From: a virus
Lineage: Duplodnaviria; Heunggongvirae; Uroviricota; Caudoviricetes
IMG/VR virus record: IMGVR_UViG_2657245483_000004
Length of the DNA stretch: 13,543 nucleotides
Reading direction: 5' to 3' (one strand)
The first letter of the stretch is position 1; each line of letters begins with the position of its first letter. The notes below the pieces were generated by a model. It saw nothing but the letters and a program-made list of their open reading frames with translations. It did not search any database and had not been told where the DNA came from. A program made the position numbers and the translations under genes. This document shows positions 1,641 to 10,898 of the stretch, piece after piece.

Positions 1641-4112
1641 TTAAGAATCAGCCTGACTCGGGATCAGTTTTTGCCAGATAACTGAAACGTATTTTGCCTG
1701 GTAACGGGCGTCATCAAGTGCATTATGGCGCTCACCTTCGAATGGAATAGCCGTTCTGGCATCGAAGTCTATGGCTTTCCCCAGCTCAACGATTGTGCGT
1801 ACATCGCGATCGTTGTAGTAACGCCACGGGCAGGGGATCCCCTGCCGTTCGTATGAACGGCGCAAAATCGTGTTGTCGAAGTTGGCTCCATTTCCCCAGA
1901 CCTGAACAAAAAATTCACCGGAGTTTTCGTCGATAAATTCCCACAATTGTAACAGTGCATCATCTAACGGGATTTCATCGGTCATAATGGCAGATTGCGC
2001 TTCGCGTGATTGCTTAAGCCACCATTTAATGGTGTCCCGATCAATGACTCCGCCAGCAGTTTCCAGATCGATAGTCTTACTAAATTCCGGTCCCATATCT
2101 CCGGTTTGCGGATCGAAAAATATTGCACCTATTGAGATGATCGGGGCATCAGGATTTTTTCCCATGGTTTCAAGGTCGATCATTAGATGGTCACACGTCC
2201 TGCTGGTGGATGTGATTTCTTGATGACCGTTCACCTTAATTGAGTGATCTGCCGTCTCGCCAGTTTCATTATCGCTATCGTGATGCTGATTGCCGCCAGT
2301 GTTCTCCTTGTGTGGATGTTCAGCGCCTTCCATTTCCTCCGGATCATCTTCCTGAACTTCAATCTGATACTCTTCATCGAATGTTTCCTGGTATGTTGCG
2401 TCGCCCATTACCGCGCCACAATCAGGGCAGTTGCCGCCGCCGGTCTGACCGCAGGCGGTGCAGACTTTTTCCACTTCCTGTTGCGCCACTGATTCAGGCT
2501 GTTTCGTTTCTGGCTCGTTTTGTAACGCATTTGGGCTGTTTTGTTCCGCTTTTTGGTAGTTCCGTTCCGATTCATGCTGGTTCTGGTTCACAGAATCGCG
2601 GGTCTGGATCCCCTTAACCCATTTCGGATCATTCGGGTCACTAATCCCTTCAACAAATTCACCACGTGATGCAGCAAGCAACTTATCGGCGTCAGGCTGG
2701 ATGATATTGGCTGCCTGCATAATTTTGTTTACTTCGTCAGCGGTAACTTTTATCGGCTCTGGTTGTTCTGAATCTTCAGCGGTATCTACATTTTGCGGTA
2801 AGCCCGTGTATGTGCCATTTTTTCGGGCAAAATATTCTTCTTTTGTGATTTCAGTGGCGCCAGCAGCCAGTGCCTTATCCAGACCAGAAAGTTTGTTTGC
2901 GCGACCGTATTTTTCTCCGTCCTTATCTGCGAAGAGGAAATAGAACGGCCCCTCACGCTCTACAGATGGTTCAGCTTCCGGCGCGGTTTCATTTTTTGGG
3001 ATATCAGATACCTCAGTTTCCACTGCATCAGTTTGTGTTTCTGATGACTGGAGAACATCAACAGTGCCCAGGTCTGTTTCTTCATTCTCAAACACGCCCT
3101 TTGTCGTCAGGTATTCGCAGATATATTTGTTCAGTGCTACGGGATCTTTGTGAATGTCGATCGGACGCTCACGGACAAGGCCAAAAATAGTTTGGCGGTC
3201 GTAGCGAAGGGCATCAGGCTGTTTGCGCATTGATGCCGAGATACGCTTCCAGTCTTCGCGGTCGTTGTCGATAACTTCATTTTTTGCCCAGCGATGGATG
3301 CTGCCGTCAATGTTTCCGGCATCCACATCACCAGGCCAGAGAGCGTAGGCCAGTTCGTCATCCAGTGTTTTCCATGTCTGCTTGTATTCGCGATGAATGG
3401 CAGCAATGACCGGGCTGATTTTTCCTGTTGAATTTTCAGTGTACTGTTGATTGGCTCTGGCGCGGGCGAGATCAACAACAGACGTGTATTTTCCGGTTTC
3501 CTTGCGTTCACCTTCGCGACGTTTTTTCCAGATGCGCATCTCTGCCTGAATTTCGGGCCATTTAGCACCAGGAATACATTTATGCTTAACCCACCCAATG
3601 GCGTGCAACTTAAGCTCCGGATACATGGCGTTAACTTCTGGCATTTTCATCAACGCTTCAACGATATGTCCGTCGAATGTTGCCATGTCTTCCTGCAACA
3701 ATTCCTGTGCGCTAATAACCATATCAACGGTGATGTTTTCACATGTGTCGAACTTAACCATGACAGCGTTCTGTACTTCAGGGGCCAGCTTGTCAAAAGT
3801 GACGTTCATCGGATCGGATTCAGTCTCAACCGGGACAAAAGAAGCAGACTCCTCATCCCAGCGGTTTTCCTGCATATATTCAGCATCCCATGAATCGAGG
3901 GCAGGGCGGGGTATGCCAGGTTTATCCTCGCAGACAATAAATTTATAAGCGCAGTCCTGAGCAGCCGGATAATGTTCCAGGAATTGCCAGTGAAATTTTG
4001 CTCGAGCACGGCGTTCGTCGCCAGCTTCAATGGCTGTGGCTACAGCCACAGCGCCTTCTTCCCTTGTTGCCAGTTCGTCAGGAATAGCGGCGCAAATAAA
4101 GACTTTACTCAT
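1641..4112 (-). CDS. Large phage exonuclease (exodeoxyribonuclease VIII-like; C-terminal DEDDh 3'-5' exonuclease domain, central zinc ribbon)
   Basis: Track ORF 1641..4148 opens at a TTG. Start placed at ATG 4110-4112 (MSKVFICAAIPDE...), which has GAGG about 10 nt upstream. C-terminus shows Exo I (MIDLETMG), Exo II (WGNGANFDN) and Exo III (HNALDDARY) motifs. Central CTACGQTGGGNCPDCG is a C-x2-C-x8-C-x2-C ribbon. A mid-protein segment (DKLLAASRGEFVEGISDPNDPKWVKGIQTRD) matches my recollection of E. coli RecE-family proteins. Confidence 0.8.
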   Translation of the reverse strand: MSKVFICAAIPDELATREEGAVAVATAIEAGDERRARAKFHWQFLEHYPAAQDCAYKFIVCEDKPGIPRPALDSWDAEYMQENRWDEESASFVPVETESDPMNVTFDKLAPEVQNAVMVKFDTCENITVDMVISAQELLQEDMATFDGHIVEALMKMPEVNAMYPELKLHAIGWVKHKCIPGAKWPEIQAEMRIWKKRREGERKETGKYTSVVDLARARANQQYTENSTGKISPVIAAIHREYKQTWKTLDDELAYALWPGDVDAGNIDGSIHRWAKNEVIDNDREDWKRISASMRKQPDALRYDRQTIFGLVRERPIDIHKDPVALNKYICEYLTTKGVFENEETDLGTVDVLQSSETQTDAVETEVSDIPKNETAPEAEPSVEREGPFYFLFADKDGEKYGRANKLSGLDKALAAGATEITKEEYFARKNGTYTGLPQNVDTAEDSEQPEPIKVTADEVNKIMQAANIIQPDADKLLAASRGEFVEGISDPNDPKWVKGIQTRDSVNQNQHESERNYQKAEQNSPNALQNEPETKQPESVAQQEVEKVCTACGQTGGGNCPDCGAVMGDATYQETFDEEYQIEVQEDDPEEMEGAEHPHKENTGGNQHHDSDNETGETADHSIKVNGHQEITSTSRTCDHLMIDLETMGKNPDAPIISIGAIFFDPQTGDMGPEFSKTIDLETAGGVIDRDTIKWWLKQSREAQSAIMTDEIPLDDALLQLWEFIDENSGEFFVQVWGNGANFDNTILRRSYERQGIPCPWRYYNDRDVRTIVELGKAIDFDARTAIPFEGERHNALDDARYQAKYVSVIWQKLIPSQADS

Positions 4113-4204
4113 TTGTTTTAACCTCATGACAGATTTAAGGATGAACAAATCCCTGCCATTGCTGGCATATAAGAATGAAACCGGATATTTATTACGGAAC
4201 TGTT

Positions 4205-4396
4205 TTAAAGACCTGCCGGGATTTCGATATTATCCTGGTGAATAACTTTATCGACCGGGTAACAGTTACCGGGAATTTTCTGTTCGGTTGCTGCAGTCAT
4301 ACACTCCTGCATTGTCCTGTGAACACTGACTGCAATATCAACTGGCTCTCCGGAAACAAGAAAAACTGTCAGAACAAGCACAAATGCTGAATTCAT
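4205..4396 (-). CDS. ydfD: YdfD-like small protein with hydrophobic N-terminus (lysis-associated in Qin prophage)
   Basis: 63-aa frame MNSAFVLVLTVFLVSGEPVDIAV... inside track ORF 4205..4450. AAGGA sits 7-8 nt upstream of the ATG at 4394-4396. Its start overlaps the dicB stop as ATGA (4393-4396), implying translational coupling. Sequence matches recalled K-12 YdfD. Confidence 0.75.
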   Translation of the reverse strand: MNSAFVLVLTVFLVSGEPVDIAVSVHRTMQECMTAATEQKIPGNCYPVDKVIHQDNIEIPAGL

Positions 4397-4750: not shown

Positions 4751-4808
4751 AAAAAGGGCGGCAGAGCAGTCACGGAGTAAAACTGATACCGCCAAACGTC
4801 ACCAGAAA
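4751..4808 (-). ncRNA. dicF: DicF small regulatory RNA
   Basis: Minus-strand sequence TTTCTGGTGACGTTTGGCGGTATCAGTTTTACTCCGTGACTGCTCTGCCGCCCTTTTT matches recalled DicF, including the 3' GC stem plus T-run (plus 4751-4770). Positioned between ydfC and dicB. Confidence 0.8.
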
Positions 4809-8539: not shown

Positions 8540-8962
8540 GTGGCAAAAGTTTTTACACAAGAAGAGCGAGAAAAAATTAAAGGGCAGGTTGTTGAACTCG
8601 TACGCCAGAGTGGGCGTGAGACGTTACGGCAACTGGAAGTCAAGACAGGTGCGACAAGATATCTGATGAGCGTTCTCGCAAGAGAGCTGGTTGCCAGCGG
8701 CGATGTATACAACTCCGGCTACGGGTTATTCCCCTCTGAACAGGCGCGTAAGGACTGGCAAAACGCCCGCAAAAAACTCTCGAGGGCAAAGGTGAAGAAA
8801 CCTGCTGTGGTTGATCCGGACCTTATCTGGTCATCACCTGACGGAGAAATACGTCGCTACGACAGTCGCCTAAACATAATCTGTCGCGAGTGCCGGAAGA
8901 GTGAAGCTATGCAGCGTGTACTGGCTTTCTATCAGGGTAATTTTCAGGAGGCGGTACTGTGA
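8540..8962 (+). CDS. Hypothetical early-region protein (140 aa)
   Basis: Track ORF. GTG start at 8540 preceded by AGGAGGG with a short spacer. Follows the replication initiator in the position where lambdoid phages usually encode a helicase loader, but it is too small and shows no Walker motifs. Confidence 0.55.
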   Translation: MAKVFTQEEREKIKGQVVELVRQSGRETLRQLEVKTGATRYLMSVLARELVASGDVYNSGYGLFPSEQARKDWQNARKKLSRAKVKKPAVVDPDLIWSSPDGEIRRYDSRLNIICRECRKSEAMQRVLAFYQGNFQEAVL

Positions 8963-9019
8963 GTGAAATTAGCTATCAGGCTTCAATTACCGCTGGCATT
9001 CGCATCAAAGGAGAGGAGC

Positions 9020-9376
9020 ATGGAAATAAAACCAGAGGATGAGTTAAGCAATATCGTTTTATTTCCGGTAAAAGAGGATGACCCTCGTAATCAGGTTAAT
9101 TTTCTTTATGAGCCATCGGAAAGACCATATTGTCATCACGCCTCTGTCCGGGTTGACGAAAAAGAGCGTCAGGTCCGCTGTAAAATCTGCGGTGCAGTTG
9201 TGGAGCCATTTGACTGGATGCTCTCTGTGGCGAAAAGAGAAACCAGACTGGCAGATGATGTAAGGCTCTTGCGTCAGGAGGAGCGGGAAAGGCGAAAAAA
9301 TATAGAAAAGCTAATTCAGATTGAGCGTAACGCGAAAGCGCGGATACGCAGGGCGACAAAATCCAGAACTGAATAA
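9020..9376 (+). CDS. Hypothetical protein with putative zinc ribbon and basic coiled-coil-like C-terminus
   Basis: ATG at 9020 with AGGAGAGGAG SD immediately upstream; the track's upstream GTG start at 8963 has no SD. Contains C-HH...C-x2-C (CHHASVRVDEKERQVRCKICG) and an R/K/E-rich C-terminus. Confidence 0.6.
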   Translation: MEIKPEDELSNIVLFPVKEDDPRNQVNFLYEPSERPYCHHASVRVDEKERQVRCKICGAVVEPFDWMLSVAKRETRLADDVRLLRQEERERRKNIEKLIQIERNAKARIRRATKSRTE

Positions 9377-9469
9377 TTAAATTTAGCTCTGTTAAAAATT
9401 TAATCCTTAACCGGAGGGATTTCTGCACCCTCAGAACATCAGGAGGCCGCCCGAAAGGGCGGTAGTTAA

Positions 9470-9652
9470 ATGCGAAAGTTTAAAATAATTATTGAAACGG
9501 GAATAGCCGGTGGAGATTTCGAGGATGAATTCGAAGTGGATGATGATGCGACGCCTGATGAAATACATGACGAAGCAAAAGATATTTTCTTTAACTACTG
9601 CAATTACTCATATCACGAAATAAAAGACGAAGAGGAAGAACAAAATGGCTGA
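9470..9652 (+). CDS. Strongly acidic small protein (60 aa), function unknown
   Basis: Track ORF. About one third of residues are D/E (DFEDEFEVDDDATPDEIHDE...KDEEEEQ). An AGGAGG SD (9441-9446) is separated from the ATG by a GC hairpin. Confidence 0.55.
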   Translation: MRKFKIIIETGIAGGDFEDEFEVDDDATPDEIHDEAKDIFFNYCNYSYHEIKDEEEEQNG

Positions 9653-9821
9653 TTTTGGTTCAACTAAATACAACGTCAGTTTTGAAGAATGGCATGAACT
9701 GTTAATGGACTATGCAGAGTTACGTGGTGGCAGTGCTGCTGATGCTGAAGCATGGCGTGATGATTATGAAGCAGGAAAAACTCCGGTCGAAGCATATTGT
9801 GATGAGTGGGGCGATGAATGA
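9645..9821 (+). CDS. Acidic small protein (58 aa), function unknown
   Basis: Not in the track (under 60 aa). MADFGSTKYNVSFEEWHELLMDYAELRGGSAADAEAWRDDYEAGKTPVEAYCDEWGDE. GAGGAAG SD 6 nt upstream. Its start overlaps the previous stop (ATGGCTGA) and its stop overlaps the next ATG (ATGA at 9818-9821). Confidence 0.5.
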   Translation: MADFGSTKYNVSFEEWHELLMDYAELRGGSAADAEAWRDDYEAGKTPVEAYCDEWGDE

Positions 9822-10075
9822 GCGAGGTTAATTATCAGGAAGGGCATGAAACGGCGGGGCAAGCAAAAACAGTGGCATGGCGATATCGCTACGTGAAAAA
9901 AAAGGCGTTACGGACTTTCAGGGGAAGTAGTGGTCTGGTGACTGGAAATATGTACCGAAAAAAGAGGATTGTAACGACAGGCCGAACTATGAAATTCAGG
10001 CCTTATTCACTGCCCCGCCAGTCCCGGTTACATCAGAAGAACTGGTTAAAGCTGTGCACTTTTATGAACAACTAA
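9818..10075 (+). CDS. Hypothetical ORF, frame uncertain
   Basis: Track ORF with an ATGA-coupled start, but the translation is unusually basic and low-complexity. A more protein-like alternative frame exists over 9931-10134; see findings. Confidence 0.3.
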   Translation: MSEVNYQEGHETAGQAKTVAWRYRYVKKKALRTFRGSSGLVTGNMYRKKRIVTTGRTMKFRPYSLPRQSRLHQKNWLKLCTFMNN

Positions 10076-10304
10076 AACGCGAAAATCCACCAGCATCCGG
10101 AAACCTGATTACAGATTCCCAGATAAGGCAATGAGCTACCTGGCGCAGAACGGGCTGATAAGTATGGGGAATGTTTTACGATGAATATTTAGACTAAAGA
10201 GTTTGTAACGCTATGTAAGTGATTTTTTCTGGTTTAGATATTTATATGTCCGGCCAAATTGAGGTGTGTTTAAATGTAATTGCACATTGATTGTAGGAGG
10301 AATA

Positions 10305-10484
10305 ATGAAAAACGCATTGCAGTTTTTGTTTGTTGCGTTCTGGTTGTTCGTATCATGTATGCCCATCATCTTCACAGCAAGGTATATGGAAAAAGTTGAT
10401 GTTTTGATATTAATATTTGGATATATAAATGCCCTTTTTTTAGGGGTGTTCATGGCGGTCATGTGCATTGAATACTGGCGGTAA
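10305..10484 (+). CDS. Small membrane protein (59 aa, two predicted transmembrane helices)
   Basis: MKNALQFLFVAFWLFVSCMPIIFTARYMEKVDVLILIFGYINALFLGVFMAVMCIEYWR. AGGAGG lies 5 nt upstream of ATG 10305. Two hydrophobic stretches. Sits in a visibly AT-rich islet. The antisense track ORF 10211..10468 lacks an SD. Confidence 0.55.
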   Translation: MKNALQFLFVAFWLFVSCMPIIFTARYMEKVDVLILIFGYINALFLGVFMAVMCIEYWR

Positions 10485-10539
10485 ATACAGCGAACGCCAT
10501 TGGTTTAGTTGGATATTTACTGTGCCGGACAAAAACGGT

Positions 10540-10567
10540 TTGCGGGGAAATCTTAGTTAAGTAGAAT
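10540..10567 (+). promoter_or_regulatory. Candidate promoter of the hok mRNA
   Basis: TTGCGG (10540-10545), 16-bp spacer, TAGAAT (10562-10567). The predicted 5' end near 10573 begins the GCGGGTGCTTGAGG element that is complementary to the 3' end. Confidence 0.45.
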
Positions 10568-10611
10568 GACTGCGGGTGCTTGAGGCTATCTGTCTCAGGC
10601 ATGAACACCAA

Positions 10612-10683
10612 AAGGCAGATAGAGAAAAGCCCCAGTTAACATTACGCGTCCTGCAAGACGCTTAACATTAATCTGAGGCCATA
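10612..10683 (-). ncRNA. Putative Sok-like antisense RNA (approximate bounds)
   Basis: Minus-strand promoter-like TTGACC (plus 10714-10719), 18-bp spacer, TAATCT. The transcript would be antisense to the mok start and leader. A minus-strand hairpin (GCGTC-ttgcag-GACGC) is followed by a T-rich stretch. Inferred by analogy with hok/sok loci; ends not determined. Confidence 0.3.
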
Positions 10684-10686
10684 TCT

Positions 10687-10746
10687 ATGCGACACATAGA
10701 GATTAGCCTCTTACGGACCGAAAGGTCAAGGAGAAGCAGGCTATGA
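10687..10746 (+). CDS. mok-like leader ORF (19 codons) coupled to hok
   Basis: ATG 10687 ... TGA 10744-10746, overlapping the hok ATG (10743-10745) as ATGA; AAGGAGAAG lies within it just upstream of hok. Shorter than the plasmid R1 mok, so assignment is by position. Confidence 0.4.
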   Translation: MRHIEISLLRTERSRRSRL

Positions 10747-10898
10747 AGCAGCAAAAGGCGATGTTAATCGCCCTGATCGTCATCTGTTTAACCGTCATAG
10801 TGACGGCACTGGTAACGAGGAAAGACCTCTGCGAGGTACGAATCCGAACCGGCCAGACGGAGGTCGCTGTCTTCACAGCTTACGAACCTGAGGAGTAA
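10743..10898 (+). CDS. hokD: Hok-family type I toxin (51 aa), HokD/RelF-like
   Basis: Not in the track (under 60 aa). MKQQKAMLIALIVICLTVIVTALVTRKDLCEVRIRTGQTEVAVFTAYEPEE: single transmembrane helix plus conserved Hok C-terminal part. Matches recalled HokD (RelF). Confidence 0.85.
   Translation: MKQQKAMLIALIVICLTVIVTALVTRKDLCEVRIRTGQTEVAVFTAYEPEE

Follow-up and report, generated by a model that had tools for sequence, protein, structure and literature searches.

The window analyzed here is the whole 13,543-bp stretch of DNA in the IMG/VR record IMGVR_UViG_2657245483_000004, which represents a Rac/Qin-like lambdoid prophage of Escherichia coli integrated beside ompW and showed 100% identity with the sequence of E. 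coli strain 203740. Two overlapping open reading frames (ORFs) on its + strand, ORF A (9470–9652) and ORF B (9645–9821), encode acidic proteins of 60 and 58 amino acids, which an earlier note had put forward as a coupled pair of candidate DNA-mimic or anti-defence proteins. Both ORFs were found with exactly these boundaries and an overlap of 8 nt (ATGGCTGA), and ORF B in turn overlaps the following ORF C by the sequence ATGA. Protein A contains 20 Asp or Glu among its 60 residues against five Lys or Arg (net charge −15), and protein B contains 16 among 58 against four (net charge −12), the isoelectric point (pI) being 4.05 for both. The predominance of acidic residues with interspersed aromatics that had been described for the pair was borne out, since the runs DFEDEFEVDDD, KDEEEEQ, DAEAWRDDYE, and DEWGDE were all present, together with eight Phe, Trp, or Tyr residues in A and nine in B.

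A and B are real, conserved genes. Protein A matched the Pfam family DUF7167 (PF23768) with an E-value of 7.9e-15 (55.1 bits; cut-off 24.4), its residues 2–53 aligning with positions 1–60 of the 60-position profile, and phrog_1997 with an E-value of 9e-31. The matches found for the A family also carry PF23768, and the RefSeq name for A is already "DUF7167 family protein." Protein B matched no Pfam family in the profile search, and showed similarity to phrog_519 (E-value 4.5e-23) over profile positions 76–137 of 143 only. Homologs of both proteins were found in other genera, down to approximately 38% identity. Comparison of B with a copy from an IncI2 plasmid gave a ratio of nonsynonymous to synonymous polymorphism (pN/pS) of 0.13, showing that B is under purifying selection. 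Both families have a conserved N-terminus, MRKFK for A and MADF[GAS]STK for B, which supports the start codons of the two ORFs. Acidity was likewise found to be a conserved trait of both families: the median net charge was −12 for the A family (55 sequences) and −10 for the B family (32 sequences), Asp or Glu was present in at least 70% of the sequences at 15 columns of the A family and seven of the B family, and the per-residue acidity was matched by only two of 46 neighboring small phage or prophage coding sequences.

Structure prediction gave a compact beta-beta-alpha(-beta) domain for A (predicted local distance difference test, pLDDT, 90) with strands at residues 2–8 and 17–23, a helix at 29–43, a short helix at 53–56, and a C-terminal acidic tail at low confidence. 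For B, a three-helix bundle was predicted (pLDDT 87; helices at 13–27, 34–42, and 47–55), and residues F13, W16, W37, Y41, G44, and P47 were conserved. Since both models are compact and confident, A and B are best regarded as folded domains rather than disordered linkers, and each is predicted to be an independently folding, tiny, stable, strongly polyanionic domain. No match for A or B was obtained in PADLOC, NCBIfam, or PDB by single-sequence or profile searches, and neither protein showed homology to proteins of unrelated known function or to any defence-related profile. Confident homology to an unrelated characterized protein, which the earlier note had named as evidence against its proposal, was thus not found in the Pfam, PDB, NCBIfam, and PADLOC searches. 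The same note had recognized no characterized family; this held in that neither protein matches a characterized one, but A had already been catalogued as DUF7167/phrog_1997 and B falls in phrog_519, a family that also includes small proteins of Kuttervirus. The two proteins are therefore members of two separate families that are catalogued but uncharacterized. In the literature, no paper was found on DUF7167 or on the accessions or sequences of A and B, and the only functional claim found for phrog_519 was a marginal anti-CRISPR prediction by PaCRISPR (score 0.54; PMC9409062).

Distribution of the A and B families

Of 5426 complete E. coli genomes, 1743, or about a third, contained the full A-B module. 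Among 160 near-identical IMG/VR loci (80 anchored on A and 80 on B), A and B occurred together in all but one, a B-anchored locus lacking A; these scans returned near-identical copies only and are informative on co-occurrence, not on diversity. In the Shiga toxin (Stx) phage ArgO145, a block with 95–96% nucleotide identity was found in the early-left (Ea22) region, consisting of a zinc-ribbon gene, one extra gene, A, B, and an intact Ead/Ea22-like gene. A or B was also found in further functional phages, such as Stx2a phages and Det7. Some copies of A are disrupted, as in strain C289, where A carries an internal stop and an insertion of IS66. The single A-only E. coli copy inspected is a pseudogene truncated by IS66.

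With increasing distance, the two families were found to part. In the phage collection, A matched 35 records and B matched 198, with little overlap between the two sets, and no B homolog turned up around distant A homologs (11 loci) and no A homolog around distant B homologs (eight loci). The "coupled pair" of the earlier note is thus upheld for the E. coli copies by overlap and co-occurrence, but not for the distant elements, where the families separate; the A-B pairing brings together two separate, independently mobile modules only locally.

The A family was present in prophages of Klebsiella, Citrobacter, and Yersinia, in Guernseyvirinae, and in Enterococcus phages of the Herelleviridae. 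In Guernseyvirinae, the A homolog lies among genes for a helicase-primase, a DUF2800 nuclease, a single-strand annealing protein (SSAP), and a DNA polymerase, and overlaps the DUF2800/PD-(D/E)XK nuclease gene. In P22-like prophages, it lies between a Dam methylase gene and a gene for a theta-subunit homolog, with ERF and SSB nearby. A conserved "exonuclease" partner of A was considered, as genes so annotated are adjacent to or overlap A homologs in both Guernseyvirinae and Enterococcus phages. This link dissolves because the neighbors belong to unrelated families (DUF2800/PD-(D/E)XK vs. DUF3850/ASCH), and it is also contradicted by other A contexts that contain no nuclease at all. The "exonuclease" beside the A homologs of the Enterococcus Herelleviridae (locus L005, 2971–3513; locus L169, 1791–2513) matched DUF3850/ASCH rather than any nuclease family, and its annotation is probably wrong. 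Among the phage records, an "Actinobacillus" phage carried a 93%-identical A and a 111-kb "Enterococcus" phage carried a B copy whose score was identical to that of the Kuttervirus copies; these records (PP818812.1 and OR844942.1) may contain incorrect host labels or assembly errors.

The B family was found in Ackermannviridae (Det7, Ag3, and 0507-KN2-1), Enterobacter siphophages, P2-like prophages, and plasmids. In P2-like prophages, the B homolog follows gpA and has two methylase genes upstream. B matched 554 plasmid records, 516 of which were typed as conjugative, and approximately 410 plasmid records contained a copy with 80–90% identity, those listed from that band being 57–67 kb in size. 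The one plasmid inspected from this band, the mcr-1/CTX-M-55 IncI2 plasmid NZ_CP031550.1 (locus L181, 8348–10157), contained a B copy with 88% identity, preceded by genes for a CaiF/GrlA-type regulator and DUF1187 (71 amino acids, not acidic) and followed by genes for SPFH and NfeD proteins and the type IV secretion system (T4SS). On IncI2 plasmids, the non-acidic DUF1187 gene thus occupies the place of A and overlaps the B-like gene via the same ATGGCTGA. A 127-amino-acid protein (P0198), which looks like a longer B and was considered as an A-B fusion, arises from a frameshift that joins the B-like gene to the IncI2 DUF1187 gene and is thus no genuine fusion.

The IncI2 B-like gene is approximately ORF 27–29 counted from the mobC/relaxase end, on what is presumed to be the leading side, oriT and the direction of transfer being inferred, and has no adjacent known anti-defence genes. 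The first 30 ORFs of plasmid leading regions are generally enriched in anti-defence genes (PMC11541004). B would accordingly lie at the edge of the enriched zone, which is not decisive. More distant B copies were found in long one-directional arrays of small genes of unknown function on IncT and other large plasmids. For 20 neighbors of B on large plasmids of Klebsiella and Providencia, Pfam scans gave no more than a single ParB-HTH match and a weak methyltransferase-like one. The upstream partner of B therefore varies by element (A, DUF1187, gpA, or a membrane protein).

Locus setting and translation signals

In the window, the + strand contains, in order, a cro-like regulator gene, a YdaT-like gene, a replication initiator gene (phrog_3729), a DUF977/Ren-like gene, a 118-amino-acid zinc-ribbon gene (phrog_1621), ORF A, ORF B, the remnant ORF C, sok/hokD, DUF968, RusA, and the Q antiterminator gene. 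Since neither a promoter-like (sigma-70-like) site on the + strand nor a terminator-like site was found in a scan of positions 8900–10800, the simplest reading is that A and B belong to the delayed-early right operon and do not form an autonomous moron. The assignment to an early region made by the earlier note is thus correct if it is taken to mean the delayed-early right operon, in which A and B come after the replication genes.

The zinc-ribbon gene (9020–9376, + strand) matched phrog_1621, a family of unknown function, with an E-value of 1.8e-56, and showed a weak Zn_Ribbon_TF match. It has 95% nucleotide identity with gp17 of ArgO145, where it also lies near A and B. It was found to move with A-B as a single DNA block and to be present in most, but not all, of the IMG/VR copies. 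Downstream, ORF C (9818–10075, + strand; 85 amino acids, pI 11) is annotated in RefSeq as a frameshifted pseudogene. Its homology to Ead/Ea22-like genes is confined to the first approximately 16 codons, which are fused to unrelated sequence, and the nucleotide homology to ArgO145 stops at position 9866. The intact counterpart in ArgO145, gp13, matched Ead_Ea22 with an E-value of 3.5e-39, and ORF C is probably non-functional.

ORF A is preceded by an intergenic cassette (9403–9469, + strand) that was recognized from its sequence, its RNA fold, and its recurrence in other prophages. It ends in the translation start region of A, in which the Shine-Dalgarno (SD) sequence AGGAGG (9441–9446) is followed by a hairpin with a 6-bp GC stem and a GAAA loop (CCGCCC-GAAA-GGGCGG; 9447–9462), 7 nt, and the ATG. 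The RNA fold of the cassette had a predicted energy of −18.6 kcal/mol (z −2.9). Judging from the sequence, the folded hairpin would place the SD sequence at the optimal distance of 7 nt from the AUG of A and would thereby form a split ribosome-binding site. Such an arrangement would be akin to the split ribosome-binding sites known from some T4 genes. As the nucleotide homology of the window to ArgO145 starts at position 9439, the SD-hairpin element belongs to the A-B module. The same cassette of approximately 65 nt stands before three different genes in different prophages: A here and in ArgO145, gp12 of ArgO145, and a DUF4014 gene of E. coli A30, with 5–7 nt between hairpin and ATG; copies were located at positions 3295–3325 and 4302–4396 of locus L002 and 2001–2067 of locus L188. 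Approximately 780 further complete E. coli genomes matched the cassette part of the query only and did not contain A-B. A split ribosome-binding site and a mosaic-boundary sequence are both candidate explanations of this portable cassette, which might also combine the two. For B, an SD-like GAGGA (9632–9636, + strand) was read 8 nt upstream of the ATG at 9645; as it is encoded within Glu codons of the tail of A, the sequence of this tail is constrained at two levels.

Elsewhere in the window, Rfam matches were obtained to a sok antisense RNA beside hokD (10574–10898) and to the small RNA DicF on the minus strand (4756–4807), both typical of Qin-like prophages. A gene on the minus strand (1641–4148) encodes an 835-amino-acid exonuclease that is strongly acidic as well (net charge −65, pI 4.6) and, given the Rac-type prophage, presumably RecE-like.

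Possible functions of A and B

DNA-mimic anti-restriction proteins, such as T7 Ocr and ArdA, and acidic nuclease inhibitors, such as T7 gp5.9, phi29 p56, and Ugi, are small, acidic, early proteins encoded on mobile elements. A and B resemble them in being small, early, carried by mobile elements, and rich in Asp and Glu (28–33%), and the net charges of A and B together with their low pI agree with the strongly negative net charge, due to densely spaced surface carboxylates, that characterizes mimics of the Ocr/ArdA type. However, they differ from all of these in lacking any sequence, profile, or fold match to them. No Pfam match to the Ocr, ArdA, or KlcA families was found for A or B (E-value ≤0.1) or for 32 members of the B family (E-value ≤1), nor any PDB sequence match. 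Mimics of the Ocr/ArdA type present carboxylates spaced like the phosphates of B-DNA on an elongated, usually dimeric surface; the models of A and B are compact domains of approximately 55 residues.

With respect to anti-CRISPR proteins, the adjacent helix-turn-helix (HTH) aca regulator that is a hallmark of their operons was not found beside A-B, whose neighbors are the zinc-ribbon gene and the Ea22 remnant, and no PDB sequence match to a solved Acr structure was obtained for A or B. AcrIE9 and AcrIE10 have been described as a small co-encoded anti-CRISPR pair widespread in Enterobacterales (PMC12248084). A and B share with this pair the layout of two small adjacent genes on mobile elements and the very high frequency in E. 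coli and Klebsiella. However, AcrIE9/AcrIE10 are overwhelmingly plasmid-borne, near FlmC/ISKpn28 and often with an HTH-like partner, whereas A-B is chromosomal and prophage-borne without such neighbors. Identity of the two pairs is unlikely because replicon type and neighbors differ, the pairs being set apart here by description and not by sequence.

The locations of both families are always early or accessory, as seen after the replication genes in the window, in the early-left region of ArgO145, and at the P22-like and P2-like sites. That B occurs in temperate phages as well as in virulent Ackermannviridae and conjugative plasmids suggests that its function is of use to any element entering a cell. 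An early, mobile, conserved, folded, and polyanionic profile agrees with inhibitors that act as decoys for host proteins binding nucleic acids, among which defence nucleases are the prime suspects. Our leading guess, a tentative one, is therefore that A and B may act as stoichiometric decoys, with a defence or DNA-surveillance nuclease as the foremost target. As independent, horizontally mobile accessory genes, they would be expressed from the delayed-early right transcript; translation would probably begin at the hairpin-split ribosome-binding site of A and re-initiate at the ATGGCTGA overlap for B. With their nucleic-acid-like acidic surface, the proteins would then occupy the site at which a host protein binds DNA or RNA, shortly after activation of the element in a cell, the leading candidates being host nucleases of type I restriction-modification, BREX, or RecBCD-type systems. 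Both the decoy mechanism and the class of target are what we infer from this profile.

The evidence does not separate this decoy reading from other roles in host takeover or from a role in the element's own DNA machinery. The same composition and context would be expected of host-takeover factors that bind a non-defence host protein, such as RNA polymerase, the nucleoid proteins H-NS or HU, or replication or repair proteins. Small acidic proteins of T7 and T4 (Gp2, gp5.5, and Arn) bind RNA polymerase or H-NS. The position of A homologs among replication and recombination genes in Guernseyvirinae and P22-like prophages would agree with such a role, and the presence of A in both Enterococcus and enterobacterial phages favors a broadly conserved target. 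H-NS as the target cannot explain the A family, however, because it is absent from Enterococcus. The RNA polymerase inhibitor T7 Gp2 (64 amino acids) has a strand-strand-helix-strand layout with a negative strip, which made it a lead for A; this lead was rejected, as the hhalign comparison gave a probability of 0.4% (E-value 0.16; nine columns aligned), and no homology to any other known inhibitor was found. We regard host takeover in this sense as possible but doubtful.

Alternatively, A and B might serve the element's own machinery for DNA replication, recombination, or transfer as accessory subunits or chaperones, e.g., as acidic partners that shield or load a basic protein. The genes lie directly downstream of replication genes in the window and in P2-like prophages, A overlaps a nuclease gene in Guernseyvirinae, and the IncI2 B-like gene belongs to an operon leading into the T4SS genes. 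On the other hand, no neighbor is conserved across contexts, as illustrated by the unrelated "exonuclease" families beside A and the changing partner upstream of B. Moreover, the module is found early-left in one phage and early-right in another, and this mobility fits a self-contained function better than that of a dedicated subunit, which makes this explanation distinctly unlikely.

An obligate two-component system, e.g., a heterodimer, would account for the 8-nt overlap, the SD sequence of B inside A, and the near-constant joint occurrence in the IMG/VR loci and in approximately 1743 of the 5426 E. coli genomes, but it is very improbable, as the distribution has already largely refuted it: the families stand apart in the 11 distant-A and eight distant-B loci and in the phage records (35 vs. 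198), and DUF1187 replaces A with the same overlap in IncI2 plasmids. That A and B are non-functional or decaying ORFs of a defective prophage, as the adjacent pseudogene remnant and the disrupted copies of A could suggest, is scarcely credible in view of the strong profile matches, the conservation across genera, the low pN/pS, the confident folds, and the presence in the functional phages ArgO145, Stx2a phages, and Det7.

That one or both proteins will found new DNA-mimic-type anti-defence families across mobile elements, with B shared by phages and plasmids and A present in Gram-negative and Gram-positive hosts, seems rather unlikely at present. The question is relevant since A-B is present in about one-third of complete E. 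coli genomes and a close copy of B is found on IncI2 plasmids of the type that spreads mcr-1 colistin resistance. Should the proteins act otherwise, A and B are still two abundant, easily testable proteins of approximately 60 residues for which no paper or annotation stating a role was found. If the proposal is true, B would serve temperate phages and virulent Ackermannviridae as well as conjugative plasmids, mcr-1 IncI2 plasmids among them, as a common counter-defence tool, and A would be an anti-defence protein effective in Gram-negative as well as Gram-positive hosts. If either of them blocks a host defence, a very common counter-defence gene would be added to the catalogue, which could help to explain the establishment of these phages and plasmids in new hosts.
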